Origin: Vicinamibacterales bacterium
GTDB taxonomy: Bacteria; Acidobacteriota; Vicinamibacteria; Vicinamibacterales; CAVVIG01
Direction of reading: 5' to 3'
Assembly (NCBI GenBank): GCA_050183995.1
Contig: JBFXAT010000003.1
Span: forward strand, 48,616-112,615
Length of the DNA stretch: 64,000 nt
Shown: in pieces, positions 14,525 to 52,912 of the stretch
How positions within the stretch are numbered: the first letter of the stretch is position 1
How the letters are laid out: each line of letters opens with the position of its first letter
Made by a program: the position numbers and the translations under genes
Notes under the pieces: model-generated
The model's input: the letters and a program-made list of their open reading frames with translations, nothing else
Databases searched by the model: none
Told to the model about the DNA's origin: nothing

Positions 14525-14581
14525 CTTTCGATGGGACCGACGGGGGATTTGGCTCGAGTCCGTGCGGTGCGGGCTCGAGCG

Positions 14582-34837: not shown

Positions 34838-35611
34838 ATGTCCGATCTTTCAGGCAAGTTCGGCCTCGTGCTCGGTGTGGCCAACAAGCGCTCGATCTCG
34901 TGGGCGATCGCGCAGGCGGCTGCCCGCGCCGGCGCACGCCTGGCCCTGACCTATCCGAGCGAACGGCTCGAAGAGAACGTTCGCGATCTCGCCGGCACGC
35001 TCGCCGATGCCGTGGTCCTGCCGTGCGACGTCACGACCGACGAACAGATTGCGGCGCTCACGGGCGCTCTCGACTCCGAGTTCGGCGGGCTCGACTTCGT
35101 CGTGCACGGCGCGGCGTACGCGCCGGCAGCCGAGCTGGCGAACTCGTTCGTGCAGACGTCGCGCGAGGGTTTTCGCACGGCGCTGGACGTCAGCGCGTTT
35201 TCGCTCGTCGCGCTCACCGCGGCGTGCGTGCCCCTCATGGAGAAGCGCGGCGGCGGCAGCGTGGTCACGCTGTCCCACATCGGCAGCGAGCGTGTGTTCC
35301 CCCACTACAACGTGATGGGCGTGGCGAAGGCCGCGCTCGAGGCCAGCGTCCGCTACCTGGCCGCCGACCTGGGACCGCGCAACATCCGCGTCAACGCGAT
35401 CTCCGCCGGCCCCATCAAGACGCTCGCGGCCGCCGGCATCCCCGGCCTCTCCGCAATGCTACAGGCGCAGCGTGAACGCGCGCCGCTGCGGCGGGGGATG
35501 GAGCTTGGCGAGATTGCCGACGCAGCCGTCTTCCTGCTCAGCAATGCCTCGCGCGCCATCACCGGCGAGGTCCTCCTCGTGGATGGCGGGTATCACGTGG
35601 CCGGCATCTAG
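34838..35611 (+). CDS. fabI: Enoyl-[acyl-carrier-protein] reductase (NADH)
   Basis: Shows GLVLGVANKRSISWAIAQA...YNVMGVAKAALEASVRYLA...RVNAISAGPIKTLAA. Confidence 0.93.
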   Translation: MSDLSGKFGLVLGVANKRSISWAIAQAAARAGARLALTYPSERLEENVRDLAGTLADAVVLPCDVTTDEQIAALTGALDSEFGGLDFVVHGAAYAPAAELANSFVQTSREGFRTALDVSAFSLVALTAACVPLMEKRGGGSVVTLSHIGSERVFPHYNVMGVAKAALEASVRYLAADLGPRNIRVNAISAGPIKTLAAAGIPGLSAMLQAQRERAPLRRGMELGEIADAAVFLLSNASRAITGEVLLVDGGYHVAGI

Positions 35612-35710
35612 GAAGAAAGGGAGTGGGAAATGGGGAAAAGGGAGAAGCCCTTCCAGCTCTCGCCGCCCACTTTTCCCTTTTCACTTTTCCCCTTCGTCCT
35701 CCCCTTCCTC
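35611..35710. repeat. Polypurine block / spacer / polypyrimidine block (imperfect long inverted repeat)
   Basis: GGAAGAAAGGGAGTGGGAAATGGGGAAAAGGGAGAAG, then a 23-nt spacer, then TTTTCCCTTTTCACTTTTCCCCTTCGTCCTCCCCTTCCTC. The arms are partly complementary (GGGGAAAAG/CTTTTCCCC). Confidence 0.7.
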
Positions 35711-35781
35711 TCGCTCAGAGACGCGGGCCTTTTCGGCAACCTGCTGGATCGCCCGGCATCCGGGTTGCACACTCAGCCGCG

Positions 35782-36084
35782 ATGCGCCTGGCGCTCGCGT
35801 TGCTCCTGCTGTCGCTCGCATCGGGATCGTGCAGCCGCGCGATCGACACCACTATCCAGGACGCGGCGATCACGGCCGGCGTCAAGACCGCGCTCTTGAA
35901 CGATGCTGCCGTCGACGGCACCACGGTGGAGGTCCGGACAGTGGGAGGCGTCGTGCGCCTCGAAGGGATGGCGCGGACGCGCGACGAGGCCGATCGCATG
36001 ATCGCCCTCGTGCGGGGCGTCGGCGGCGTCCGCGACGTCGATGCGCGGATCAGCGTTGAGCCTCGCTCCACTCCTCGGTTCTGA
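35782..36084 (+). CDS. BON domain-containing lipoprotein
   Basis: MRLALALLLLSLASGSCS, then IQDAAITAGVKTALLNDAAVDGTTVEVRTVGGVVRLEGMARTRDEADRMIALVRGVGGVRDVDARI. Confidence 0.8.
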   Translation: MRLALALLLLSLASGSCSRAIDTTIQDAAITAGVKTALLNDAAVDGTTVEVRTVGGVVRLEGMARTRDEADRMIALVRGVGGVRDVDARISVEPRSTPRF

Positions 36085-36927: not shown

Positions 36928-38289
36928 CTAGTCGACTGGAATGCTGGACGTGCTCGACCCGTCCGGCTGGAGGGCGAACTCCGCAATCTTCCGGTAGAGC
37001 GTGCCTCGGCTGATGGCGAGCACTCGTGCGGCCTCCTTCTTGTTCCACTGAACGGCCTCGAGCACGCGTGAGATGTGCGCGCGTTCTGCTTCGGCCAGCG
37101 TCGACAGCCGTTCCGACCCGAGCGGTTGTGCCGGCTCGGGACGGAGGAAGTCGACATCCTGCGCCCGAATCGCCCTGCCGGGCGCCGAGAGCGCCGCGCG
37201 GGCCACCGTGCTCTCCAGCTCCCGGATGTTGCCCGGCCACGCATAGGCGAGCAGCGCGTCGAGCGCGTCGCGCGTGAAGGACCGGCTGTCGGCGGGCAGC
37301 CCCTGCGCAAGACAGTGCCGCGCGAGGAATCGCTCGGCGAGGATCGGAATGTCGACGCGCCGTTCGCGCAGCGACGGCAGCCTGATCGCGAAGGCGTTCA
37401 CGCGGTAGTAGAGATCTTCGCGAAAGCGTCCGTCCCGCACGAACTCGTCGAGGGGCCGGTTGGTCGCCGAAATCAGCCGGAAGTCCACCGTGATCGAGCG
37501 GTGGCCTCCGAGGCGTTCGAACCGGCGTTCTTCGAGCACGCGCAGCAGCTTCGCCTGGGCGATGAGCGCCAGGTCGCCGATTTCGTCGAGGAAGAGCGTC
37601 CCATTGTCGGCCAGCTCGAGCCGCCCCGGCTTGCGCTCGTGTGCGCCGGTGAACGCGCCGCGTTCGTGCCCGAAGATCTCCGACTCGAACAGCGTGTCTG
37701 GCAGCGCGGCGCAGTTCACCGCCTGGAAGCGCCCGCTCGCGCGTCGACTCAGCTCGTGGATCATCCGCGCGACCACTTCCTTGCCCGATCCGGTCGGGCC
37801 CAGGATCAGGACCGAGATGTCGGACTTCGCCGCCGTCCTGATCCACTCGAACGCGATCAGCATCTTCTCGTCGCGCCCGATCATCTCCCTGAAGCGCTGC
37901 ACGGCAGGGGAGCGGTCTTCCACCGTCGCCGCGGCGCGCCGCTCGAGGAACTCGTCGAGGAGGAGCGCTGTGGTGTCGTCGGTCGGCCGCGTCGCGACGA
38001 AGCGTGACGGGAACAGCGTGCCCGGAATCATGTACGCGACGCCGAAGTCGACCAGTTCGCGCACGCAGGCCTCGACGTCCATTCGCAACCGGCCGACCGC
38101 CTGCATCAGCGCCTCGAGCTCGAACGCTTCGTCCGGGTGGGCGTTCAGGAATCGCAGCAGACCCGCGCGCAGCGGCGATTGCACCAGCGCGCGGAATCGT
38201 GCGGCGGCGTCGGCGATCGCGGCGTCGGGGAGGGTCGCAGTGCCGATCTGACTGGCACCGATCGTCGGGTCGTTCATTGCTGCATGCAA
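36928..38289 (-). CDS. Sigma-54-dependent transcriptional activator (bEBP) with a non-receiver N-terminal domain
   Basis: Walker A GPTGSGKE, GAFTGA motif (ERGAFTGAHE), C-terminal Fis-type HTH AARVLAISRGTLYRKI. The N-terminal 150 aa are neither receiver-like nor GAF/PAS-like by eye. Confidence 0.9.
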   Translation of the reverse strand: MHAAMNDPTIGASQIGTATLPDAAIADAAARFRALVQSPLRAGLLRFLNAHPDEAFELEALMQAVGRLRMDVEACVRELVDFGVAYMIPGTLFPSRFVATRPTDDTTALLLDEFLERRAAATVEDRSPAVQRFREMIGRDEKMLIAFEWIRTAAKSDISVLILGPTGSGKEVVARMIHELSRRASGRFQAVNCAALPDTLFESEIFGHERGAFTGAHERKPGRLELADNGTLFLDEIGDLALIAQAKLLRVLEERRFERLGGHRSITVDFRLISATNRPLDEFVRDGRFREDLYYRVNAFAIRLPSLRERRVDIPILAERFLARHCLAQGLPADSRSFTRDALDALLAYAWPGNIRELESTVARAALSAPGRAIRAQDVDFLRPEPAQPLGSERLSTLAEAERAHISRVLEAVQWNKKEAARVLAISRGTLYRKIAEFALQPDGSSTSSIPVD

Positions 38290-41290: not shown

Positions 41291-42148
41291 ATGCTCGATC
41301 CCGGTCGGACTCGGAACGCCGTCGCCCCTTCGATCCTCGTCCTGCTCGCAGTGTGCACCGGGGCCTGCGTCGACATCGTGGCTGACGATGGCGGGATCGT
41401 CGAGCGTGTGGAGCACCGGTTCGACGCGGGCGATGAGCCGGTCATCGACGTGCAGACGTTCGACGGCCGCGTCAGCGTTGCGACCTGGAGCCGTCCCGAG
41501 GTGCTGATCGTGGTGGAGAAACACGCCGCCGATCAGGAACACGCGGATCGCATGCAGGTTGCCGCGACGCAGGAGGGGACGCGGATCGTGTTGGCGGTTC
41601 GCCAGACCGGCCCGCGGCAGATCGGGTTCAAGTCTGGTCCGTTCTCCGCACGGCTGCTCGTCATGGCGCCGCCGAGGTCCAGCTTGATCGCGCTCTCCGG
41701 GGACGGCGGGATCGACGTGGTCGATCTCGAAGGCGACATCGACGTTCGGACCGGCGACGGCCCGATACACGTCGCGGAGGTGTCCGGTGCCGTGAGCGCT
41801 CAATCGGGTGACGGGGGCATCGAGATAGAGGGCCGCCTGCGCAACCTGCGCGCGCGATCAGGCGACGGCGGCATCACCGTGCGGGCGCACGAGGGCAGTG
41901 CCGTCTCCGACCCGTGGAGCATCTGGACGGGTGACGGATCGGTGATGCTGGAGCTGCCCAGCGGTTTCGGCGCCGAGCTCGACGCGCACACCGGCGACGG
42001 CCGCATTCGCGTGAGCGACATTGCGTTCAGCGGCCCATCGCCCGAGCTGGCCAAGCGGAGTCTCCGCGGTCGCATCGGAGCCGGAGGTTCGCAGGTACGC
42101 ATCCACACCGGCGACGGTTCGATATCGGTGCGCGGCGTCAGCCCGTGA
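41291..42148 (+). CDS. DUF4097-like beta-strand-repeat lipoprotein
   Basis: GGAGG RBS. Lipobox LLAVCTGAC. Repeated SGDGGI/TGDG.I units (GDGGIDVVD, TGDGPIHV, SGDGGIEI, SGDGGITV, TGDGSVML, TGDGRIRV, TGDGSISV). Confidence 0.75.
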   Translation: MLDPGRTRNAVAPSILVLLAVCTGACVDIVADDGGIVERVEHRFDAGDEPVIDVQTFDGRVSVATWSRPEVLIVVEKHAADQEHADRMQVAATQEGTRIVLAVRQTGPRQIGFKSGPFSARLLVMAPPRSSLIALSGDGGIDVVDLEGDIDVRTGDGPIHVAEVSGAVSAQSGDGGIEIEGRLRNLRARSGDGGITVRAHEGSAVSDPWSIWTGDGSVMLELPSGFGAELDAHTGDGRIRVSDIAFSGPSPELAKRSLRGRIGAGGSQVRIHTGDGSISVRGVSP

Positions 42149-42839
42149 AGGTGCGGGCCGCGTAGTCGGTCGTGTCAGGTACGCCGGCCTTGACGAACGC
42201 CTCGTGCCGCTCGCGGCACTTGCTGCAGACGCCGCAGTGGCGTGGGAACGCAGGGCCGTTGGGGAGCGGGCTCATGCACGACAGCGTCAGCTCGAGCCGC
42301 ACACCGAGCGCCTGTCCACGGCGGATCACATCGATCTTGCTCGAGCCGGCATAGGGCGCCTGGATCTCCAGAGGGCTGTCGAGTCCGAGCGACAGGGCAT
42401 GAGCCATCGCGCCGCGGAAGTCCGGCGTGGCGTCGGGAAACGGATTGCGATCGAGCGTGCCGATCACCAGCCTGCGCACCCCGCGCATGCCGCAGAGGAT
42501 CCCCGCTTTCCCGAGGAGCACGATGTTCCGGCCCGGCAAGTACACGTCTTCGTCCGGCGTGTGGTACGCGGGAGGCGTTCCGTTCAGTGCCCAATGCGCG
42601 GCCGGGTACAGGTCGGTCATGTCGACCGTCAGCTCGACGAGCGGCAGCACCGAAGCCGACCGGTGTCCGTGCGCGAGGAAGTGCCGGACGGCGTCGCGCT
42701 CCGACGCCTCCCACGCGAGGCCGACCGAGACGTAGATGGGCTGTACGTCGATCGGCTGCGCGCCGGGGCGTGCGGCTTCCTCGGCCAGGAGCACGGCGCT
42801 GTCGAGCCCGCCTGACAGGAGTACGGCGACTGGAGGCAT
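42138..42839 (-). CDS. queC: 7-cyano-7-deazaguanine synthase-like PP-loop ATPase (divergent QueC)
   Basis: MPPVAVLLSGGLDSAVLL...YLPGRN...PFPDATPDF...SCMSP...HCGVCSKCRERHEAF. The PP-loop and C-terminal Cys cluster are present, but the canonical YGQRH block is not recognisable. Confidence 0.75.
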   Translation of the reverse strand: MPPVAVLLSGGLDSAVLLAEEAARPGAQPIDVQPIYVSVGLAWEASERDAVRHFLAHGHRSASVLPLVELTVDMTDLYPAAHWALNGTPPAYHTPDEDVYLPGRNIVLLGKAGILCGMRGVRRLVIGTLDRNPFPDATPDFRGAMAHALSLGLDSPLEIQAPYAGSSKIDVIRRGQALGVRLELTLSCMSPLPNGPAFPRHCGVCSKCRERHEAFVKAGVPDTTDYAARTFTG

Positions 42840-43022
42840 GGTGGAAATGTGGACGGGTCGAACCAAGGATTCTGCGGACCAGTTTTCCTGGCCGTTCGGC
42901 CGAGGCAGAGAATATCATTCGAAGGGCAGCGAGCGGTCGTCGGCCCGCCCGAGCCGTCGCTGAACCGGTCCATCGTCCAACTCGTCACGTTGCATCGTCC
43001 ACTCGTCATCCGTTCATTTCCC

Positions 43023-43424
43023 ATGTATTCAGTCACCAAGCGCATCGAGTTCTGCTACGGCCACCGGCTGCTCGACTACGACGGCATCTGCAAGCATCCG
43101 CACGGCCACAACGCCGTTGCCGAGATCGAAGTGCGGACCGATCAGCTCGACACCCGCAACATGGTCTGTGACTTCAGCGACATCAAGCGGACCGTGAAGG
43201 GCTGGATCGATCGGGAGCTCGATCACAAGATGATCCTCCGCCAGGACGATCCGCTCGTCGCCCCGCTGCGGGAGCTCGGCGAACCGATCTTCATCGTCGA
43301 CAGCAACCCGACGGTCGAGTGCCTGGCGCGCCTGATCTTCGACTATGCCGCCGGCCAGCAGTTGCCGGTCGTGCGTGTCACCGTGTGGGAGACCCCGACC
43401 TCGTTCGCCGAGTATCGGGCCTGA
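43023..43424 (+). CDS. queD: 6-carboxy-5,6,7,8-tetrahydropterin synthase
   Basis: Shows MYSVTKRIEFCYGHRLLDYDGICKHPHGHN...DHKMIL. Confidence 0.88.
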   Translation: MYSVTKRIEFCYGHRLLDYDGICKHPHGHNAVAEIEVRTDQLDTRNMVCDFSDIKRTVKGWIDRELDHKMILRQDDPLVAPLRELGEPIFIVDSNPTVECLARLIFDYAAGQQLPVVRVTVWETPTSFAEYRA

Positions 43425-43432
43425 CGCGATCG

Positions 43433-44122
43433 ATGGCGGCTCCCTCCGTGGCGCCGGCGCGGACGCCGGTGGCGCCGATCTCGCTGGTCGTCTTCGATCT
43501 CGACGGCACGCTCGTCGATTCTCTGCGGGATCTGACCGAGTCGTTGAACGAGCTGCTGGAGGAATACGGACTGCGGCCTCACGGCCAGGACGCCGTCGGG
43601 CGCATGGTCGGTGAAGGCGCGGCAACACTCGTGGCGCGCGGCTTCGCGGCGGCGGGTCGCGAGGCGCCAGCCGGCGCCCTCGCGCGCTTTCTCGAGCTGT
43701 ATGAAGGCAGGGTGTTGCGTTTCACGCGTCCGTACCCAGGGGCGCTGGAGATGCTCGATCTCCTCGGACGCACGCACCGCCTTGCGCTGCTGACGAACAA
43801 GCCGCGTCTGTCGACGATGGCCGTCCTCGACGGATTGGGCCTGGCCGCCTACTTCGGCGACTCCATCGTCGGCGGGGACGAACCGATCCCGCGGAAGCCG
43901 GACCCCGCCGGCCTGCTCCATCTCGCCGGGCGCGCCGGCGTTCCGGCCGCGTCGACGCTGCTCGTGGGCGACTCGTTCGTCGACTTTCGGACCGCCCGAT
44001 CCGGCGGCGCGCAGATCTGCATGGCGCGGTACGGATTCGGTTTCGCTGAGTTTCCCGTCGAACAGCTGAACCCCTCGGATCGCCTGATCGACGCGCCGCT
44101 GCAGCTCCTTGCTTCGCTGTAG
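43433..44122 (+). CDS. HAD-superfamily hydrolase (phosphoglycolate-phosphatase-like)
   Basis: Shows LVVFDLDGTLVDS...LLTNKP...VGDSFVDFRTA. Confidence 0.85.
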   Translation: MAAPSVAPARTPVAPISLVVFDLDGTLVDSLRDLTESLNELLEEYGLRPHGQDAVGRMVGEGAATLVARGFAAAGREAPAGALARFLELYEGRVLRFTRPYPGALEMLDLLGRTHRLALLTNKPRLSTMAVLDGLGLAAYFGDSIVGGDEPIPRKPDPAGLLHLAGRAGVPAASTLLVGDSFVDFRTARSGGAQICMARYGFGFAEFPVEQLNPSDRLIDAPLQLLASL

Positions 44123-44220
44123 CCGTTCCGCGTCGGCTTTCAGTACGTTCCAAAAGCCCAACTGTTAGGCTTTCGTGCACGATCTCGCTACGCCCGCCTG
44201 ATTCCCGCAGGAAACCGACA

Positions 44221-44236
44221 TGGCACCGCCGTTGCT
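44221..44236 (+). promoter_or_regulatory. Sigma-54 (-24/-12) promoter upstream of the gas-vesicle genes
   Basis: TGGCAC-CGCCG-TTGCT, an exact TGGCAC-N5-TTGCW match in the correct orientation, 79 nt upstream of the gvpJ ATG. It is the only such match seen in the window. Confidence 0.7.
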
Positions 44237-44314
44237 CCTCGGTCCTGGTCCAAGTTTGATTGCGTTGGCGCGCTGCCGTAACGGCCAGCGGACCTGTCAC
44301 GGCTTACCGAGATT

Positions 44315-44689
44315 ATGCCTACGTCCTTGACTGACGGGCACGGGCGTTCCACCGGGCTCGTTGATGTGCTCGACCGTGTGCTCGACAAGGGTCTGGTCGT
44401 GGCAGGCGACATCCGCGTGTCGCTCGCCGAAGTCGAGCTCCTCACGATCCGCATTCGTCTGCTGATCTGTTCGATCGACAAGGCCGAGCAGATCGGGCTC
44501 GACTGGTGGAAGTTCGACCATCACCTCTCACCAGGGAAGCAGGCGCTCTCCGCGGAGAACGAGGAGCTGCGTCGGGAGCTTCGCGCCCTCGAGCGGAAGC
44601 TGGCGGCCGCGACGAAACGCCGGCCGGTGTCAGGCGCGCGGGGCCAGGCGATGCGCGCGCGAACGTCAGGAGAAGACGATGCCCGTTGA
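44315..44689 (+). CDS. gvpJ: Gas vesicle protein, GvpJ-like (GvpA/J/M family with C-terminal extension)
   Basis: Shows [51 protein letters not shown]. Confidence 0.88.
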
Positions 44690-44996
44690 ACGAGCCGCAG
44701 GCGGCACGAGCCTGATCGACGTCCTCGATCGTGTCCTCGACAAGGGCATCGTCATCGACGCGTGGGTCCGAGTGTCGCTGGTCGGCATCGACCTCATCAC
44801 CGTCGAAGCACGCGTCGTCGTGGCTTCGATCGACACGTATCTGAAGTATTCGGAAGCCGTGGGACATGCTGCGCCCGTGAGCCGGCCGGCTGTCGAAACC
44901 AAGCCGTATGAGGAAGTCCTTGCCGAAAACGCAGCACTCCGGGCTCAGCTCCAGAGTCGTGCCGCTGGCAGCCGGGCTGCTGGCGCACGACGCTGA
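44679..44996 (+). CDS. gvpA: Gas vesicle structural protein GvpA
   Basis: Shows [52 protein letters not shown]. Confidence 0.92.
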
Positions 44997-47175
44997 TCGC
45001 TCGCGCGGCGCCGATGGCAACGGCGCCGATCACAATCGGCAGGGCGCTCTCGCCCCGGAAGGCGCGCGCCTGGACGCGCGTCTCCAGCTCCTCGAGGGGT
45101 TCCTCAGCCGTACCGATCTCGGCGACACGGCCCAGTACGGCCTCGAGTGGCTGTCGCGGGTTCTTCGCGTGCCGAAAGCGCTCTGTGTGATCCGGCAACG
45201 CGGTGAGAACGTCCTTCACCCCATCGGGTGGCACGGCCTGCCCCCCGCCGACGCAGCGGCGTTCGCCGTCTCGGTCGGCGAGTGGGAGAGTCCGCTGCTC
45301 AGCGTCCTGCAGACGCGGCGCACGGTTCACTATCCGGCGCCGGAGACGGTCGCCGATCGCCGCAATCGTCCGGCGACGCCCTTCGGCGACGCGCCGTTTC
45401 ACGCCGTGCCCCTGGGGTTGTCGACCTTCTCCGACCAGACGCTCGGGCTGTTGCTCTGCGCCGGGGGTCCGCGGCTGCCCGACGACTTCGGCTGGTTCTG
45501 CTCGACGTTCGGACACAAGCTGGATCAGATCCTCCGGCATCAGGCGCTGGCTGCCGGCGGGACGCGTGATGGCCACGAACGCTCGCTGCTCTACAGCATC
45601 ATCAACGCCGTCACCGATCCGATCCTGCTGACCGACACGGAAGGGCGGCTGCTCATCGCGAACGCCCGCGCCCTCGCGCTGTTCACCGCGTCTGAGGAAG
45701 AGAGCGAAGGGCGGCGCAGCGCGGTCCGCATGAACAACATGCTCCTGTCGTCGGCGCTCTCGAGCAAGGCAATCGAGGAGGCCGGCGCCTCCCGCCGGGA
45801 GCTGCCTCTGGTCAATCCGGTGGACGGCTCCGATCTGCTGTTCGAGCTCCTCAGCACCACCATCGAGGACGCCCGGCACGGCACCGGAATCGTGTCCATC
45901 CTTCGCAACGTGACCGACCTGCGGCACGCGAGCGAGGAGCTCGAAGAGAACTACCGCCGCCTGCGGATCGCCGAGGCACAGGCGCGGGCCGAGAGCAACC
46001 GCCAGAACCTGATCATCAACTCGGTCGCCGACCCAATCGTCGTCACCGATGCGGCGGGCGCGACGTCGCTCATGAACGACCTCGCCGAACGCCTCTTCAC
46101 GCTCCGGCCGCAGGCGGGCGACGCCGAGCGGCGGGTGGTGCAGTCGAACGACGCCCACTTCTCGACCTTCATCGCGGGAATGCTGGTCGGCGAGGATCCG
46201 CGGCGCGTGGGCCTGATCGCCCTGGCCGACCCGCACACGGGCGAAGCGATGCCGGTCGAAGCGATTGCGGGACGCGTGCTGTCGGACCGCGGCGAGCTGA
46301 CGGCCGTTGTCACCATCCTGCACGACAGGCGCGAAGCGCTCGAGAAGGCGAGGCTCTACGAGCAGGTGAAGTCGGTGTCCGCCGAGCTCGAACGGAAGGT
46401 CCAGGCGGCGACCGCCGACATCGCGCAGCAGAACGAGCTGCTCCGGCGGCAGGCGATCGAGCTCGAGCAAGCCTCGATGCTGAAATCGCAGTTCCTCGCG
46501 AACATGTCGCACGAGTTCCGCACGCCGCTCAATGCCATCCTGGGCTACACGTCCATGCTGCTGCAGGGCGTCGGCGGGCCAATCGAAGGCGCGGCGCGCC
46601 GGCAGCTCGGGCGCATCGAGTCGAATGGCAGACACCTGCTCGCCATCATCAACGAGATCCTCGACATTTCCCGGATCGAAGCCGGCCGGATGCCGCTGCA
46701 GATGTCGCGCTTCGCCATCCCCGAGCTCGTTCACGAGGTCCGGGCCGAGCTGGAGCCGATCATCCTGCGCTCGCGATTGAGCTTCACGCTCGATCTGCCG
46801 CGCGACCTGCGGCCGATCACGAGCGATCGGCACAAAGTGAAGCAGATACTGATGAACCTCGTGAGCAATGCCCTGAAGTTCACGCACGAAGGCAGCGTGA
46901 CCATTGTCGCCAGACGACGGCTTGCGGAGCGCGCAATCGAGCTCTCGGTGGTGGATACTGGCATTGGGATCGCGCCGATGGACCAGGAACGCGTCTTCGA
47001 GGACTTTCGACAGCTCGACAACTCGCCGACCAGGCCTTACGGGGGGACGGGCCTGGGACTCTCGATCTGCAGCCGCCTGGCGCAGATGCTCGACGGGACG
47101 CTGACGCTCAAGAGTCAATTGGGCGTCGGCTCGAGATTCACGCTGAGACTCCCCATTCAGCAGGAACGCGGATGA
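44908..47175 (+). CDS. Cytosolic sensor histidine kinase (GAF-like, two PAS-like regions, HisKA, HATPase_c)
   Basis: H-box [15 protein letters not shown], plus [16 protein letters not shown] and GTGLGLSI. No transmembrane segment is visible. Every in-frame start candidate (ATG 44908, TTG 44920, GTG 44959) overlaps the gvpA 3' end. Confidence 0.88.
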
Positions 47176-47612
47176 CTACTTCAGATACCCACGGCCGCCC
47201 GAAAGTGCTGCTGGTCGACGACTATCCCGATGCACGGGAGATGTACAGCGAGTATCTCCAGTTCTCGGGGTTCGACGTCGTCGAGGCCTCCAACGGGATG
47301 GAGGCGCTGCAGCGCGCGGCAGAGACGGCGCCCGACATCATCCTGATGGACCTGTCGCTCCCGGTGATGGACGGGTGGGAGGCCACACGCCGGCTGAAGG
47401 CCGACGAGCGCACTGCCGGCATCCCTGTAGTCGCGCTCACCGGCCACGCTCTGGCGGGCATTTCGGAAGGGGCTCGGCAGGCCGGCTGCGATGCATTCGT
47501 CACCAAGCCATGCCTGCCGGAGGATCTCGTGAAGGAGATCCGCCGGGTGTTGAGCGGCTCGGGCGACGTGAGGTCTGGCGGGAGCGGCAAATATGCGAAG
47601 ACGATCGGCTGA
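47172..47612 (+). CDS. Stand-alone response-regulator receiver domain protein
   Basis: [10 protein letters not shown]...[13 protein letters not shown]...VVALTGHA...FVTKP, with no output domain. ATGA overlap with the kinase stop. Confidence 0.9.
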
Positions 47613-48579
47613 CGCCGCCCAGGGGACGAGACGCGCGACCCCCCGGCAGGTGAAGGCGAAGTCTCCGGTCAGGCCTTCGTCCCCGTCTGCGGTCCGGAAC
47701 GGGAAGTCGCGCGCCGCAGGAAACGGGCACGCACGGAACGCGAGGCGCAGAAGCGCGGAGGCCGTTGCGGCGCGAGTCGCGGACGACAACGTGTTCGAGC
47801 CCATCGGCGGCGTCGACGGCAGCGCCCTCGCCAGCCGCGGCAAGTACGTCTACTGCATCATCGAAGCCGCCGAGCCGCTCGCATTCGGTCAGATTGGCAT
47901 CGGTACCGCGCCGAGTGACGTGTTCACGGTCCACTTCCGGCACCTCGCCGCGGTCGTCTCCGACGCGCCGCTGGAAGTGCTCGACTCCACTCGCGAGAAC
48001 GTCCTCGCGCACGAGCGCGTGAACGAGACCGTGATGCGGGAGCACACCGTCATCCCGATGTCGTTCGGCACCATCTTCAAGACGCGCGAAGACATCGTCG
48101 AGCTGCTCCGCTCCGCCGCCGAGGCGTTCGGCGACGTGCTGAACAAGATGCAGAACAAGCTCGAGTTCGGCCTGAAGGTGTTGTGGGATCGCGACCAGGC
48201 GATCCGGGAGCTCGAGAAGGACGACGAGGACATCAGGCGCCTGAAGGAGGAGATCTCGAGCCAGAAGGGGCCGACCTACTTTGCGCGCATGCAATACGGC
48301 CGGCTGGTGGACGCCGCCCTCCAGGCGCAGTCGGAGCGTTACCTCTCGGCGATCCTCGCGGACTTGCGGGATGTCTCGGTCGCATCGCGGATCAACAAGC
48401 CGATTGGCGACAGGATGATCATGAACGCGGCCTTCCTGATCTCGCGCGATCGAGAAGCAGCCTTCGATGCGCGCGTGAAGGCGATAGCAGCGCGTTTCGA
48501 CAAGCTGACGTTCAAGTACACGGGCCCGTGGCCTCCCTATAACTTCGTGAACATCCGGTTGAAGCTCGAGCGCGCCTAG
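47593..48579 (+). CDS. gvpF: Gas vesicle protein GvpF/GvpL family (copy 1) with a basic N-terminal extension
   Basis: KYVYCIIEAAEP...VHFRHLAAVVSD...HERVNETVMREHTVIPMSFGTIF...FKYTGPWPPYNF. The start is uncertain; the N-terminal 80 aa are Arg/Ala-rich. Confidence 0.85.
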   Translation: MRRRSADAAQGTRRATPRQVKAKSPVRPSSPSAVRNGKSRAAGNGHARNARRRSAEAVAARVADDNVFEPIGGVDGSALASRGKYVYCIIEAAEPLAFGQIGIGTAPSDVFTVHFRHLAAVVSDAPLEVLDSTRENVLAHERVNETVMREHTVIPMSFGTIFKTREDIVELLRSAAEAFGDVLNKMQNKLEFGLKVLWDRDQAIRELEKDDEDIRRLKEEISSQKGPTYFARMQYGRLVDAALQAQSERYLSAILADLRDVSVASRINKPIGDRMIMNAAFLISRDREAAFDARVKAIAARFDKLTFKYTGPWPPYNFVNIRLKLERA

Positions 48580-48581
48580 CC

Positions 48582-48881
48582 GTGTTCATCCTCGATTCGC
48601 TTCTCATCGGATCCCTGCGTTTCGTGCTGGATAAGGTCGCGATCGCCGCCGAGACGGAACTGCACGACGACACGGCCGTTCGAGAACAGCTCCTCGAGGC
48701 GCAGATGCAGCTCGAGCTCGGCGAGATCAGCGAGGAGGAATTCGGCCGGGTCGAGGCCGCGGTCTTCGAACGCCTGCGGGCGTTGAGGGTCGCCCAGCCC
48801 CACGGCTTGACGCTCGCATCGCCAGAGGTCAGAGTGACCGGCATCGAGGCTACGGTGGCCGGAGACAGTCACGAAGACTGA
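48582..48881 (+). CDS. gvpG: Gas vesicle protein GvpG
   Basis: Shows MFILDSLLIGSLRFVLDKVAIAAETELHDDTAVREQLLEAQMQLELGEISEEEF. Confidence 0.88.
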   Translation: MFILDSLLIGSLRFVLDKVAIAAETELHDDTAVREQLLEAQMQLELGEISEEEFGRVEAAVFERLRALRVAQPHGLTLASPEVRVTGIEATVAGDSHED

Positions 48882-48892
48882 CCCCGCTTCGC

Positions 48893-49684
48893 ATGAGCCG
48901 CGCCACCTACGTCTACTGCGCCGTGGCCAGTTCGATCCGGCCGGCCCCGTCAGGGCTTCGCGGCCTTCCCCGTACGGGCGAGGTGCGACTGCTCGACGTC
49001 GATCGCGGCCTGTGGCTCGTCGTCGCTGACGCTCCGCTCGCGACGTACGGCGAGGCCCACCTCGCCGCCAGGCTCGGCGACCTGCGCTGGGTGTCCAGGG
49101 CTGCCGTCGCGCACGACCGCGTCGTCGAGGCGTTTCGCGGCGCGGATGCGGTCTTGCCGATGAAGCTGCTGACCCTGTTCGCGAGCGATGAGCGGGCGCT
49201 GCAATACGCGGCGGAGATGCGTGAGACGCTGGATCGGCTCGTGACACGCGTCAAGCGGCACGACGAGTGGGGGTTGCGGCTGACTCTCGGATCGCCGCAC
49301 CGGCCGACGGCGCGCGGGCCGCGCGCGGCGGCGTCGACTGCGTCGACGGTCGCCCGTGCCCAGAGCGGCGCCCAATATCTCGCACGGAAGAAGGCCGCTC
49401 GAGACGAGGGCGCGGAGCGCACCGCGCGGGGACGGACGCTCGCCGAAGAGCTCTGCGCGTCGCTGGCGCGGCACGCATCGGCCGTGCGCAGACGTGGCGA
49501 CGATGGGATTGGCGCGGACGGTCGAGGGCGGTCCCTGCTGCTCGACGCCGCAATGCTGGTGCCCCGCGCCCAGGCGGCCAGATTCAGTGCGGCTGCGGCC
49601 CGTCGGGCGAGAGCCCTGGCGCCGGACGGCTTCGATCTCGTTCTGACCGGACCTTGGCCGCCGTACAGCTTCATGAAGGACTGA
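48893..49684 (+). CDS. gvpL: Gas vesicle protein GvpF/GvpL family (copy 2)
   Basis: Shows TYVYCAVAS...WLVVADAP...HDRVVEAF...AVLPMKLLTLF...LVLTGPWPPYSF. Confidence 0.85.
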   Translation: MSRATYVYCAVASSIRPAPSGLRGLPRTGEVRLLDVDRGLWLVVADAPLATYGEAHLAARLGDLRWVSRAAVAHDRVVEAFRGADAVLPMKLLTLFASDERALQYAAEMRETLDRLVTRVKRHDEWGLRLTLGSPHRPTARGPRAAASTASTVARAQSGAQYLARKKAARDEGAERTARGRTLAEELCASLARHASAVRRRGDDGIGADGRGRSLLLDAAMLVPRAQAARFSAAAARRARALAPDGFDLVLTGPWPPYSFMKD

Positions 49685-49686
49685 GC

Positions 49687-50037
49687 GTGCCGAAGCAGTC
49701 CCGAAGAGAAGCCGCCTCGTCGCCACTGGAACGTGTGCTCGAACCTGGGGGATCGAGCCTGCTCGACGTGCTCGACCACGTGTTGGCCAAAGGGGTGACG
49801 GCCACCGGCGATCTGACCTTGGGGCTGGCAGGTGTCGACCTGATCTACCTGCGTCTGTCGGCGCTGCTCGCCGCCGCCGATCGGGTGCTGCCGCGTGTGA
49901 AGGCGCAGCAACGTGAAGGCGCGAAAGGGCAGACGCGTGGAGGTGCCAAGGCGCAGCAACGCCGACATGTGAAGGCGCATGCACGCGGCAAGGCCGCGGC
50001 TTCACCGGCGGGTTCGCGCCGGAGCGGACGGCGATGA
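49687..50037 (+). CDS. Gas vesicle protein, GvpS/GvpM-like divergent member of the GvpA/J family with a Lys/Arg-rich tail
   Basis: The GTG start is 2 nt after the previous stop. SLLDVLDHVLAKGVTATGDLTLGLAGVDLIYLRLSALLAAADRV. Confidence 0.75.
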   Translation: MPKQSRREAASSPLERVLEPGGSSLLDVLDHVLAKGVTATGDLTLGLAGVDLIYLRLSALLAAADRVLPRVKAQQREGAKGQTRGGAKAQQRRHVKAHARGKAAASPAGSRRSGRR

Positions 50038-50504
50038 CCCGGAAACGCCGCGACCGGGAGCCGGAGCGGCCGCCACGTGCCACCCCCCGAACAGGTGCGA
50101 CGCGAGCCGCTGGCGGCCACAAGAGGACATCTGTTCGCGCGAAGTCCCCTCGCGCCGCACCCGTAACCGCATCAGAGCTTCGCGCCCTGCAGCGCGAGCT
50201 CCAGCGGCGCGTCGGTGCCGCGGGGCCGTCGAGGCCTCGTGACGGCGCACGCTGGAACCCCGATCCCGAGGATGTCCAGAAGTCGGTCGCGCAACTCGTG
50301 CTGACGATCGTCGAATTCCTCCGTCAGTTGATGGAGCGCCAGGCCATCCGCCGCATGGAAGCGCAGACGCTGACGCCGGAGGAGATCGAGGGAGTAGGGG
50401 TGGCGCTGATGCGCCTCGAGGAGACGGTGCGCGACATGGCTGCCCGGTTCGGCCTCGCTCCGGAGGATCTGAACCTGGATCTCGGTCCGATCACCCTCCG
50501 CTAG
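50034..50504 (+). CDS. gvpK: Gas vesicle protein GvpK
   Basis: LVLTIVEFLRQLMERQAIRRMEAQTLTPEEIEGVGVALMRLEETVRDMAARFGL.PEDLNLDLGP. ATGA overlap with the previous gene. Confidence 0.88.
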   Translation: MTRKRRDREPERPPRATPRTGATRAAGGHKRTSVRAKSPRAAPVTASELRALQRELQRRVGAAGPSRPRDGARWNPDPEDVQKSVAQLVLTIVEFLRQLMERQAIRRMEAQTLTPEEIEGVGVALMRLEETVRDMAARFGLAPEDLNLDLGPITLR

Positions 50505-50530
50505 ATCACCGGATTCCCGCGCGTGGACCG

Positions 50531-52912
50531 CTACATTCCCACGCGGACACCGACCCTGAAGGTCCGCGGCAGCCCTGGGCGCGACACGTAATCGGCCACC
50601 GGAGCATCCTCGATTGCCGCCGGCGATCGCGGGTCCCGAATGCGCGTGGAGAAATAGTACGCCTCGTCTTCGTATCGCCGGTCGAACAGGTTGAAGCCCT
50701 GGAAGACGATCCGAATGCGAGGCGCGACCTGATACTCCGCCTGGGCGTTCATCACGAGGGAGCTCTGGAGGAAGATCGATTCGTCGGGCACGAGCGGCCG
50801 CCGTCCGACGTAGCGGCTTCGCAACGACGCGGCGAGCTTCGGCCGCGTGACGCTGACACCCGCCGTGATGACCGCCCGCGCCGTATCGGTGATCGCGCGT
50901 CCGATTCCCTCCGGGTCGATCCGGTACCGGGCCGACGACCACGCCGAGTCGAGGTCGATCGCGAGCCAGGGCCGCAGCCGAACGTAGTTCAACCATTCGA
51001 GGCCGAAGCGGCGCCCGGGCCGCTCGGGTGACGTGACGCCGTCCTCCGGCGTGTAGAGCAGCTCGGAATCCGATCCGAGATACCAGAGCGCCAGCGACAC
51101 CTGCGTCTGCCGCGCGGGCTGCATCCGCACGCCGACCTCCGCGCCGCGCGTCCGCACGATCGGCGGTGTGCCCTCCACCGCCGAACCGTCGTACCGCGTC
51201 GCGGCTCCGGTCACCGGGTCCACACGCTGCATCACACCCGCAGCGTGGTTGCTGTGAAACCCCAGTCCCGCATTGGTATAGATCTCCGTCTTCCTCCACG
51301 GACCGAAGACCACCGACGCTTTGGGGCTGACGATGGCGGCCTGTCTCACCCCGGAGTTCGCCGCGTGGCCCGCCCGCACGTCCATGCGCAGGGCGTCCGC
51401 GCGCGCGCCGGCGACGATGCGCATCCAGGGTGTGAGCTGGAGCCGTGCGTCCACGAAAGGCGAGATCGTCGTCTCGCCGATGCGCGTGTCGAAGACGAGG
51501 GCAGGCCGAAGCCGTCCCTCGTCGTCGAACTTGTCGCGAGGATCGCGGCCGACCGTGTTGCGAAGCCCGACCCGCGTGCGATCGTGGCGCGCCTGAAGTC
51601 CGGCAGTCAGCTCGACATGGCCGATCGCGGATTGGAGCGCGCGGGCGTAGCTGACGTGAGCGCCCGAGGAGATGCGTCGATCCGACTGTTGGATCTGATC
51701 GCCGTCCACGGCGCTGACCGTCCAGAACGTCAGGTTCGAAAAGAGGTCCATGTCGTAGTAGCGAACGTACGCGCCGGCGTTCAGGAGCGACGATCCGCTC
51801 GCCACCCGGCGCGACGCCACCACGAAGTGCTGCTGCGATCGCCCCCCGTTAGTCGGGTCGAGCGTGCCGAAGCGCGACATGTATCCGCGCTCCAGGGCGC
51901 GGCGCGGGTAGCCGTCGCTGGCGGTCCAGTCGGCGGCGTAGCTCGAGACCGTGAGACTGGAATGGCGATCCGCCGTTCCACTCGAGTAGCGCGCGAACGC
52001 CTTGTACCGTCCGTAGTCGTCCGGCACCACGTTGGGCCCATTGTCTTGGCTCGCTTCGGCCCCGAGGAGCAGACGATGGCCGTGGCGTTCGACCGATGTG
52101 CCTGCCGCCAGACGTACGAAGCCGAACCCGCCGCCCTCCACCCGTGCGAACGGCGCCGCGATCGAGTCGACGAGCTCGAAATTGGTGGAGCCGGCCGTTC
52201 CGAAGTTGCCGACGCGCGCCGAATACGGCCCCTTCTGAAAGTCGACCCGTTCGACGAGCTCGGGAATCAGGAAGTTGAGGTCGATGTACCCCTGGCCGTG
52301 CGCATGACTCGGCGCATTCAACGGCATCTGTTCCAGGAAGGCGGCGAAGTCGGTGCCGTGATCGAGGTTGTAGCCGCGCAGCAGGATGATCGGCGCGTGG
52401 CCGCCGCTGCTGTGCTGTGTCATCGCGACGCCCGGCACGACCTCCAGCAGGTCTCCCGCCTTGGTCAGTGGCCGCGCCGACAGCTCTGACCGGCCTACGG
52501 CACCCTCGCTCGCCGATGCGCTGACCCCGACCAGGCTCGACGCCCGCCCCTCGACGGTCATCGTCTCGCCGAACGGGCGGTACAGGGTCACGATGATCCG
52601 CCGGCCGCCGCCGCGAACGAAGTCGAAAGGCTCGGTCGCGTGAGCCTGGTAGCCCTCCGCCGTGGCCAGGATCGGCCCGCTGGCGCGATCGCCGTCAATC
52701 CTCAGGCAGTAGCCGCCCTCCATGGGGGTTGCGACAACCGGCCCGCCCTCGGCGAGGAGCTCGACGTGCGCCGGAACCGCGGCGCCGGCCAGGTCGACGA
52801 CTTCGATCGTCGCGGCGCAGGCGCCCGCCTCCTGTGCGGCGGCTGTGCCCGAGAGGAGCGCGAAAGGAAGACAACACGCGGCGGCGAAAACCTGAATTTT
52901 GTGCAATAACAC
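50531..52912 (-). CDS. TonB-dependent receptor with an N-terminal CarboxypepD_reg-like domain
   Basis: Signal peptide. Plug region LLEVVPGVAMTQHSSGGHAPIILLRGYNLDHGTDF...VERVDFQKGPYSARVGNFGTAGSTNF. Beta-barrel ending ...FRVGVRVGM. GTG start. Confidence 0.9.
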   Translation of the reverse strand: MLLHKIQVFAAACCLPFALLSGTAAAQEAGACAATIEVVDLAGAAVPAHVELLAEGGPVVATPMEGGYCLRIDGDRASGPILATAEGYQAHATEPFDFVRGGGRRIIVTLYRPFGETMTVEGRASSLVGVSASASEGAVGRSELSARPLTKAGDLLEVVPGVAMTQHSSGGHAPIILLRGYNLDHGTDFAAFLEQMPLNAPSHAHGQGYIDLNFLIPELVERVDFQKGPYSARVGNFGTAGSTNFELVDSIAAPFARVEGGGFGFVRLAAGTSVERHGHRLLLGAEASQDNGPNVVPDDYGRYKAFARYSSGTADRHSSLTVSSYAADWTASDGYPRRALERGYMSRFGTLDPTNGGRSQQHFVVASRRVASGSSLLNAGAYVRYYDMDLFSNLTFWTVSAVDGDQIQQSDRRISSGAHVSYARALQSAIGHVELTAGLQARHDRTRVGLRNTVGRDPRDKFDDEGRLRPALVFDTRIGETTISPFVDARLQLTPWMRIVAGARADALRMDVRAGHAANSGVRQAAIVSPKASVVFGPWRKTEIYTNAGLGFHSNHAAGVMQRVDPVTGAATRYDGSAVEGTPPIVRTRGAEVGVRMQPARQTQVSLALWYLGSDSELLYTPEDGVTSPERPGRRFGLEWLNYVRLRPWLAIDLDSAWSSARYRIDPEGIGRAITDTARAVITAGVSVTRPKLAASLRSRYVGRRPLVPDESIFLQSSLVMNAQAEYQVAPRIRIVFQGFNLFDRRYEDEAYYFSTRIRDPRSPAAIEDAPVADYVSRPGLPRTFRVGVRVGM

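Follow-up and report, generated by a model that had tools for sequence, protein, structure and literature searches.

In this study we examined the likely regulation of a gas-vesicle (gvp) operon carried on a 64-kb stretch of DNA from a Vicinamibacterales bacterium (hereafter the window; 68% G+C), whose closest relatives are metagenome-assembled genomes of Vicinamibacterales/Acidobacteriota. Directly upstream of gvpJ, the first gene of the operon, we found a single exact match to the -24/-12 promoter element recognized by sigma-54 RNA polymerase (TGGCACCGCCGTTGCT, 44221..44236, + strand), which, judging from its sequence and conservation, is very likely a functional sigma-54 promoter. With moderate confidence, we favor an overall reading in which this promoter drives the gvp operon, a bacterial enhancer-binding protein (bEBP) binds two upstream dyads that we call B1 and B2, and this bEBP is an NtrC-type activator encoded away from the gvp genes and fed by the histidine kinase of the operon itself.

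An exact -24/-12 element precedes the gas-vesicle operon

The element reads TGGCAC-CGCCG-TTGCT and matches the sigma-54 consensus at 11/11 specified positions, with its GG and GC dinucleotides exactly 10 nt apart, as is expected of this class of promoter. It is held in a 192-nt intergenic gap between the stop codon of a HAD hydrolase gene (44122) and the ATG of the gvpJ-like gene (44315), is oriented towards gvpJ and is separated from its start codon by 78 nt. An earlier inspection of the letters alone (the original prediction) had described an exact TGGCAC-N5-TTGCW match at 44221..44236, intergenic and correctly oriented before gvpJ, and had seen no second complete match on either strand. Our re-reading of the sequence agrees with the former statement and our scan of the window with the latter: on both strands of the 64 kb, 44221..44236 is the sole match to TGGCAC-N5-TTGCW, where 0.02 matches per window are expected by chance (mean of dinucleotide-preserving shuffles). 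Relaxing the scan to sites with fixed GG and GC and at least 9/11 specified positions added 8 further sites, none of which reached 11/11 and the majority of which are intragenic. Going by the general geometry of sigma-54 promoters, the transcription start is predicted at 44247 (+), ~12 nt past the C of the -12 GC, which would give a 5' untranslated region of ~68 nt. A consensus scan of 43300..50700 returned no sigma-70 promoter, no + strand terminator was found in the same interval, and no Rfam element matched in 43000..46000; with these scans empty, we rejected a sigma-70 promoter, a terminator or a known RNA element in the leader.

Our comparison with relatives draws on 80 loci, which a single search of species-representative genomes returned for the GvpJ-like protein, and on a promoter alignment of 21 sequences anchored on the motif (the window and 20 related Acidobacteriota loci). 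TGGCA[CT]-N5-TTGCT is found 64-86 nt upstream of the gvpJ start codon in the 19 closest loci (L003-L021) and in L033, and in each of these 20-kb loci it is essentially the sole site scoring at least 10/11. Across 2.78 Mb of related loci (both strands), 20 of the 50 sites that score at least 10/11 are the site upstream of gvpJ. The 21 aligned promoters comprise 17 different 16-mers; on average, each of the 11 specified positions carries 1.89 bits of information, against 0.89 bits for a position of the 5-nt spacer and 0.24 bits for one of the flanking intergenic DNA. This pattern of conservation is the one expected of a functional -24/-12 element, and not of recent common descent. The call of a sigma-54 promoter in the original prediction is thus backed by a position and a sequence conserved in 20 related loci around a spacer that is free to vary, and we infer that transcription from 44221..44236 depends on sigma-54 in vivo.

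In the sub-clades of L057 and L068, sites of 10-11/11 are located further upstream of gvpJ, and in L057 an additional small receiver gene precedes gvpJ. Thermoanaerobaculia loci keep nGGCAr-N5-CTTGCA ~68 nt upstream of gvpJ; there (L039-L071), a common stretch ~50-110 nt upstream of gvpJ reads ATGGTAGCAG...nGGCAr-N5-CTTGCATTGAAy-N17-TAGGAT. Two observations in these more distant clusters weigh against sigma-54 control as a general property of the system. The Thermoanaerobaculia block can be read either as a sigma-54 site (9/11) or as a sigma-70 promoter (TTGAAy-N17-TAGGAT), and in the Rokubacteria/Methylomirabilota clusters no clear -24/-12 site precedes gvpJ. We therefore rejected sigma-54 control for all homologous clusters; the promoter class may have switched between Acidobacteriota classes, or both classes may be in use.

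Paired dyads upstream of the promoter are candidate activator sites

Upstream of the -24/-12 element, the conserved signal appears, from the alignment, to be a pair of TGT-N11-RCR dyads. The proximal one, B2 (44162..44179, +; CTGTTAGGCTTTCGTGCA; TGT-N11-GCA), lies at about -85 to -68 from the predicted start and forms an 18-bp block with the clade consensus CTGTyGGGCTTyGATGCA. B2 is intact in the window; its TGT and GCA ends are retained in 21/21 aligned sequences and survive an altered core in L003, L014, L021 and the window, and the block starts 55-59 bp (~57 bp) upstream of the -24 TGG in 16/21 sequences. The distal dyad, B1 (44130..44147, +; GCGTCGGCTTTCAGTACG; CGT-N11-ACG), lies at about -117 to -100 and corresponds to an 18-bp block with the clade consensus CTGTA-N9-TACG, whose start precedes that of B2 by 33 bp in 15/21 sequences. 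Given a start at 44247, the centres of B2 and B1 fall at about -76 and -108, which are ordinary distances for bEBP binding sites, and because the two are separated by about three helical turns, they would lie on one face of the DNA. The composite B1-B2 pattern has a single occurrence in the window. In the 80 genome loci, the exact B1 dyad was counted 19 times versus ~5 times in shuffles; a sigma-54 site of at least 10/11 follows 17 of the 19 at a distance of 77-100 nt, three of these 17 being in L038, L040 and L042, and a B2-like element with a downstream sigma-54 site was observed 17 times versus 0-1 in shuffles. Taken as candidates, B1 and B2 are likely to be bEBP binding sites.

Several features of the dyads weigh against this assignment. 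The window's own B1 is degenerate (6/9 specified positions) and offset from B2 by 32 bp, and beyond the close clade, B2-like elements are supported by two loci only (L076 and L088). In addition, the left half of B1 (CTGTA) is the last codon plus the stop codon of the HAD gene in most relatives, so that the HAD stop codon is embedded in the dyad and coding constraint on HAD may explain part of the conservation of B1. This overlap also favors an alternative in which the promoter is real, but B1 and B2 bind a repressor or an architectural protein, or B1 is just the 3' end of HAD, and the activator binds elsewhere or non-specifically. A third conserved block between B2 and the -24 element (GTTCCATACCGAATT) points in the same direction, as more than one factor may bind there. 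We consider this alternative unlikely, since the dyads sit at distances typical of upstream activating sequences (UASs) and in helical phase, their co-occurrence with -24/-12 sites far exceeds that in shuffled controls, and B1-type dyads precede sigma-54 promoters of unrelated genes without stop overlap in L038, L040, L042 and L088; in the first three of these loci, the gene is a small one for a DUF5670-type membrane protein. B1 thus seems to be a real motif despite its overlap with the HAD stop codon.

Classical UASs of bEBPs are TGT-N10-ACA for NifA and TGCACC-N5-GGTGCA for NtrC. Like these, B1 and B2 are paired short dyads with TGT/ACA- or GCA-like ends, located ~70-150 bp upstream of -24/-12; unlike these, the dyads of the window are N11-spaced and have GCA or ACG as the right half-site.

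The original prediction had instead proposed as activator sites an inverted repeat GGCTTT-N12-AAAGCC together with a third GGCTTT. All three hexamers exist and the third had been placed exactly (44168..44173), but the first two had been set 1 nt too low, their true coordinates being 44135..44140 and 44153..44158. Both direct copies extend to GGCTTTC and are 33 bp apart, and the AAAGCC pairs better with the neighbouring third copy (AAAGCCCAAC-T-GTTAGGCTTT). As to a role in activation, the first and third copies do fall within the dyads, the first inside the variable core of B1 and the third inside the conserved core of B2, but the AAAGCC arm (44153..44158, +), although present in the window, lies within the variable B1-B2 spacer and has no counterpart in relatives. 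We therefore rejected the inverted repeat as an activator site, as one of its arms falls in the variable spacer and relatives lack the repeat; the conserved signal would be the pair of dyads and not GGCTTT/AAAGCC.

Three further blocks are conserved in relatives and degenerate in the window. The block GTTCCATACCGAATT lies 16-30 nt before the -24 element in many relatives (44186..44206 in the window), GAGATAAG follows directly 3' of TTGCT, and GTAGAATACGGAACCTATG, which includes a -10-like TAGAAT, abuts the gvpJ start codon (44290..44314 in the window). Binding of a second regulator, start-site context or translational control are possibilities for the roles of GTTCCATACCGAATT, GAGATAAG and GTAGAATACGGAACCTATG.

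An NtrC-type family in sister clusters provides the best candidate activator

The original prediction had asked which protein activates the promoter. Its statement that the regulator encoded inside the cluster is a bare receiver holds, and the question can now be narrowed: the distal bEBP that it had pointed to is unlikely, and an NtrC-type family is found in sister clusters. In these sister clusters, a receiver-AAA+-HTH_8 bEBP is encoded directly upstream of gvpJ on the same strand (L036, L061, L038, L040, L042, L050, L076 and L083-L088), the usual gene order being YtxH, bEBP, gvpJ, gvpA, kinase and receiver, followed by gvpL/F and/or gvpK. The helix-turn-helix (HTH) of this family is highly conserved (NKRxAASILGVYRPTLYxKLKKY), and the L036 and L061 proteins carry the GSFTGA variant. 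The dyad types of the window recur in the same clusters: in L038, L040, L042 and L088, a sigma-54 promoter is preceded at 77-88 nt by a B1-type dyad, and in L076 and L088, CGGTACnnnnGTTGCA is preceded at 57-58 nt by a B2-like element (ATGTAGGCTTTTGCTGCA or ATGTAGGGTTTTGCGTCA). The CGGTACnnnnGTTGCA promoter heads a hybrid-kinase, gvpA-like, gvpL, gvpG and gvpF operon in L088, and in L076 it heads a HisKA kinase gene followed by gvpL, gvpG and gvpF.

With the L061 bEBP as the query, identity is 62-64% for gvp-linked members of the family and 57-61% for unlinked ones, and two of the three unlinked NtrC-type members examined (L091/L092 and L093) lie near YtxH-type genes. Because divergent members are encoded away from gvp genes, an unlinked NtrC-type orthologue in the window's genome is plausible, and we lean towards such an unlinked family member, rather than the distal bEBP, as the activator. 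Against this stand two negative results: no dyad-plus-promoter pairs were found near the unlinked NtrC-type members, and neither rpoN nor an NtrC-type bEBP is present in the 64-kb window. Besides the distal bEBP, our search of the window found no other bEBP, no rpoN and no NtrC orthologue of the gvp type; an open reading frame (ORF) with an RpoN box is absent both from the window and from 1.5 Mb of related loci, and among the records from the L061 bEBP search there was no NtrC-type orthologue from an assembly with a window-type cluster. The genome presumably encodes sigma-54 all the same, because the window contains a GAFTGA-bearing bEBP and sigma-54 is reported to be almost universal in diderm lipopolysaccharide bacteria (PMC3162934).

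In the mechanism that we infer, sigma-54 RNA polymerase would be held at 44221..44236 as a closed complex while a bEBP oligomer assembles on B1 and B2, contacts the polymerase by looping the DNA and uses ATP hydrolysis to open the promoter, after which transcription from ~44247 would span the whole operon. The activator would not be island-encoded, the best candidate being an unlinked orthologue of the NtrC-type response regulator of the sister clusters. The PAS kinase of the operon would phosphorylate this regulator, with the single-domain receiver in an auxiliary role comparable to that of GvrC in Serratia. As kinase and receiver would be transcribed from the promoter that they help control, the circuit would amount to a positive-feedback switch.

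The distal bEBP belongs to the backbone and is probably not the activator

The only bEBP of the window (36928..38289, - strand) has a Pfam AAA+ domain with GAFTGA, a C-terminal HTH_8 domain and an unknown N-terminal domain. Its first ~135-140 aa match no Pfam family, and hence no receiver domain, even at E = 1, which argues that the protein is not a response regulator, and by sequence the N-terminus has no relative of solved structure. One could propose that the sigma-54 promoter is real and that this protein is its activator, either sensing via its N-terminus or controlled in trans by the phosphorylated receiver. It is the sole bEBP of the window, with GAFTGA and HTH_8 intact, has neither an adjacent kinase nor a receiver domain, and is encoded 6.7-9.6 kb upstream of gvpJ in 9/19 closest loci; in addition, one locus (L136) keeps the promoter and the receiver beside this bEBP's backbone after the loss of the gvp genes and the kinase.

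However, the gene travels with its surroundings rather than with the island. A metagenome scan with this bEBP as the query recovered a backbone of the order bEBP, DHS, orf143, amidohydrolase, DUF4097, QueC, QueD and HAD, then DtxR, methyltransferase and T2SSE. In ~10 of these loci (L108, L116, L118, L125, L134, L139, L140, L164, L169 and L173), DtxR and its neighbours directly follow HAD/QueD with no gvp genes between, and the bEBP is retained there at 67-75% identity along with the block from DHS to QueC, QueD and HAD; the gvp island was found in one contig only (L095) of that scan. The distal bEBP is therefore a backbone gene, its proximity to the island is most simply explained by synteny, and it is probably not the activator. 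Conversely, six close loci (L004, L005, L008, L010, L013 and L016) keep the promoter and the dyads with no bEBP within 10 kb on either side. The HTH of the distal bEBP (NKKEAARVLAISRGTLYRKIAEF) is unlike that of the gvp-linked family, to which the protein is 44% identical over the AAA+ core, a generic level, and no B1/B2-like site lies near its own gene. The protein has a possible local target (the BON-domain lipoprotein gene described below). We thus judge it improbable that the distal bEBP activates the promoter, and the unlinked NtrC-type protein is the activator that we prefer.

A variant of this proposal is a split NtrC, in which the operon receiver, phosphorylated by the operon kinase, would act in trans on the receiver-less bEBP at 36928..38289; to us this appears more doubtful still. 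If it were true, the sigma-54 promoter and the receiver would make up a self-standing regulatory module able to outlive the gvp genes, as in L136. In the HAD-DtxR interval of that locus (ORMF012477948.1), HAD is followed by an exact B1 dyad (CTGTAGGGTTCTTGTACG) and then by the identical 16-mer TGGCACCGCCGTTGCT, which starts 88 nt after the start of B1. A receiver gene (130 aa, 85% identical) lies ~70 nt past the 16-mer, and then comes DtxR; the gvp genes and the kinase are all gone, whereas the promoter and the receiver are intact. The interval looks like a natural deletion remnant.

The predicted promoter heads a nine-gene operon within a variable island

The predicted promoter is followed by a nine-gene operon of ~6.3 kb, all on the + strand, with genes that overlap or are separated by tiny gaps; from 44315 to 50504 they form a single co-directional string without an internal consensus promoter or terminator. 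The first gene is gvpJ/M-like (44315..44689; Pfam Gas_vesicle, E = 1.4e-16, with NCBIfam GvpA/GvpJ below the cut-off), and an identical GvpJ-like protein occurs in GCA_050247735.1. It is followed by gvpA, for the major structural protein (44679..44996; Pfam Gas_vesicle, and NCBIfam GvpA PRK09371 at 112 bits with a cut-off of 100), by a gene for a cytoplasmic PAS-HisKA-HATPase histidine kinase (44908..47175; Pfam, with an H-box) and by one for a CheY-like single-domain receiver (47172..47612; Pfam Response_reg only, with the DD, D, T and K phospho-acceptor residues present). The remaining genes are gvpL/F (47593..48579; Pfam GvpL_GvpF, E = 3.7e-75), gvpG (48582..48881; Pfam GvpG), gvpF (48893..49684; Pfam GvpL_GvpF, E = 1.2e-40), a second small GvpA-family gene that is J/M/S-like (49687..50037; Pfam Gas_vesicle, E = 4.7e-12) and, last, gvpK (50034..50504; Pfam GvpK). 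By Pfam and NCBIfam, gvpA plus J/M, F, L, G and K are thus all present. The original prediction had already named the gvpJ-like gene, gvpA, the bare receiver and, at 36928..38289, the window's one bEBP, all of which we confirm; it had not mentioned the PAS kinase.

The kinase gene comes directly after gvpA in nearly all of the 80 loci, and the receiver gene after the kinase gene in nearly all. In its longest form, the kinase ORF shares 89 nt (44908..44996) with the 3' end of gvpA, so that the true start of the kinase is uncertain. In the public gene call for the identical contig L001, the kinase is called from 1900 and gvpA (L001 1659..1976) is omitted; the gene for the major gas-vesicle protein is therefore missing from the gene list of that record.

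Directly upstream of the operon, at 42138..44122, lie the genes for QueC (- strand), a QueD/PTPS-like protein and the HAD hydrolase, an arrangement kept in all 19 close loci where the contig reaches (QueC and QueD in 18/19, L015 being cut short). On the other side, 3' of gvpK, follows a convergent gene for a TonB-dependent receptor with a Plug domain (50531..52912, - strand). Because ~10 contigs show the same backbone without gvp genes, the gvp cluster with the receptor gene (44123..52912 in the window) is a variable island between HAD and a DtxR-family gene.

The gene content of the island counts against a fully working system. No GvpN-type domain was found among the ORFs of 44315..50504. A tandem ArsA-like ATPase gene, which lies between gvpG and gvpF in 47/80 loci, including 18/19 closest (for example at 14531..16489 in L006, 652 aa with two ArsA_ATPase domains), has no match in the window, where gvpG and gvpF adjoin at 48881..48893; it is also absent from L003, and none is called in L001. 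Given the loss of the ArsA-like gene and the lack of gvpN, the island may be decaying and may no longer make gas vesicles. Together with the degenerate state of B1, of the third block and of the block before the ATG in the window, and with the Rokubacterial clusters that have no clear -24/-12 site, this decay would fit an explanation in which the match at 44221..44236 is fortuitous or vestigial and the operon is transcribed by sigma-70 or silent in this genome. We regard such an outcome as highly improbable in view of the position-specific conservation over 21 sequences with a variable spacer, the mere 0.02 matches expected by chance, the empty sigma-70 scan of 43300..50700 and the retention of the identical 16-mer in L136.

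Comparison with known gas-vesicle regulation

The gvpA1 start of Serratia sp. ATCC 39006, mapped by 5' rapid amplification of cDNA ends (5'-RACE), has a sigma-54 consensus site upstream, and transcription of gvpA1 needs each of GvrA (NtrC-like), GvrB (histidine kinase) and GvrC (CheY-like receiver) (PMC4982088). Clusters of Proteobacteria typically have a second operon that starts with gvrA and contains gvrB and gvrC (PMC4982088). The window resembles Serratia in having a sigma-54 promoter before an operon that starts with small structural gvp genes, and in combining a histidine kinase with a single-domain receiver in the gvp cluster (as do ~70 loci, matched by domain architecture alone). An NtrC-family activator also belongs to both systems, although here it is seen in sister clusters only. 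Unlike Serratia, with its gvpA1... and gvrA...gvrB-gvrC operons, the window has one operon, in which the kinase and the receiver come directly after gvpA under the sigma-54 promoter itself. Its island has no in-cluster or adjacent bEBP, whereas sister clusters have one, and it lacks gvpN, gvpC and gvpV; the organism, moreover, is Vicinamibacterales-like and belongs to the phylum Acidobacteriota.

The sister acidobacterial clusters with an embedded bEBP, of which we found no description in the literature searched, share with the window the core of gvpJ, gvpA, PAS kinase and receiver as well as B1/B2-type dyads before sigma-54 promoters. They differ in carrying YtxH and the bEBP directly upstream of gvpJ, where the window has HAD, and in that they often split the gvp genes into at least two sigma-54-driven units, mixed with DUF5670, DUF892, DUF3309 and YtxH stress-type genes, in contrast to the single promoter with B1 and B2 of the window. 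The Streptomyces coelicolor cluster is likewise from a soil organism and has A, J, F, L, G, K and S/M-like genes without gvpN or gvpC (PMC4982088); gas vesicles are undemonstrated for it as for the window. Unlike the window, this cluster has no gvrA, gvrB or gvrC (PMC4982088), and Actinobacteria have no sigma-54 (PMC3162934).

In full-text literature searches, we found no account of gvp genes under sigma-54 control in Acidobacteria. The mechanism itself is not new, being already known from Serratia, and no long-standing question is answered here; what is new is the phylum, the rearranged layout and an activator that is not encoded beside its target genes. Experimental proof of sigma-54 control of gvp genes comes so far from Serratia only, and our finding extends such control, as a prediction, to a large group of uncultured soil Acidobacteriota, whose gvp genes form a mobile or variable island that also encodes a kinase and a receiver. 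Now that a promoter, two putative activator sites and a candidate family of activators can be named, the regulation becomes directly testable. It would also matter for gvp clusters that are transplanted as acoustic reporters, as this one would stay silent unless rpoN and the missing activator were present as well.

Other sigma-54-like sites

In L083-L088 and L038, gvp genes are interleaved with genes for YtxH, DUF892, DUF3309, DUF5670, DUF1328, BON and an AI-2E-family transporter, and several of these small stress-type genes are preceded by sigma-54-like sites of 9-10/11, which points to a broader sigma-54 regulon for stress or dormancy, with the gas-vesicle genes among its members.

Within the window, a sigma-54-like site (CGGCATCCGGGTTGCA, 9/11) lies at 35754..35769 (+) upstream of a gene for a small BON-domain lipoprotein (35782..36084, +). 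With 12 nt between the end of the site and the ATG, an mRNA started there would have almost no leader. L003 carries CGGCACCTCCGTTGCA at the equivalent place before its BON gene, and other relatives lack the BON gene there. The site may be a local target of the bEBP at 36928..38289; as a test for a conserved local target it was uninformative, the site being present in the window and L003 only. Between the gene at 34838..35611 and the BON gene, we also observed a long, imperfect purine-rich/pyrimidine-rich inverted repeat (35610..35710), in which GGGAAATGGGGAAAAGGGAGAAG is paired with CTTTTCCCTTTTCACTTTTCCCC in arms of up to 31 nt that contain internal short tandem repeats.

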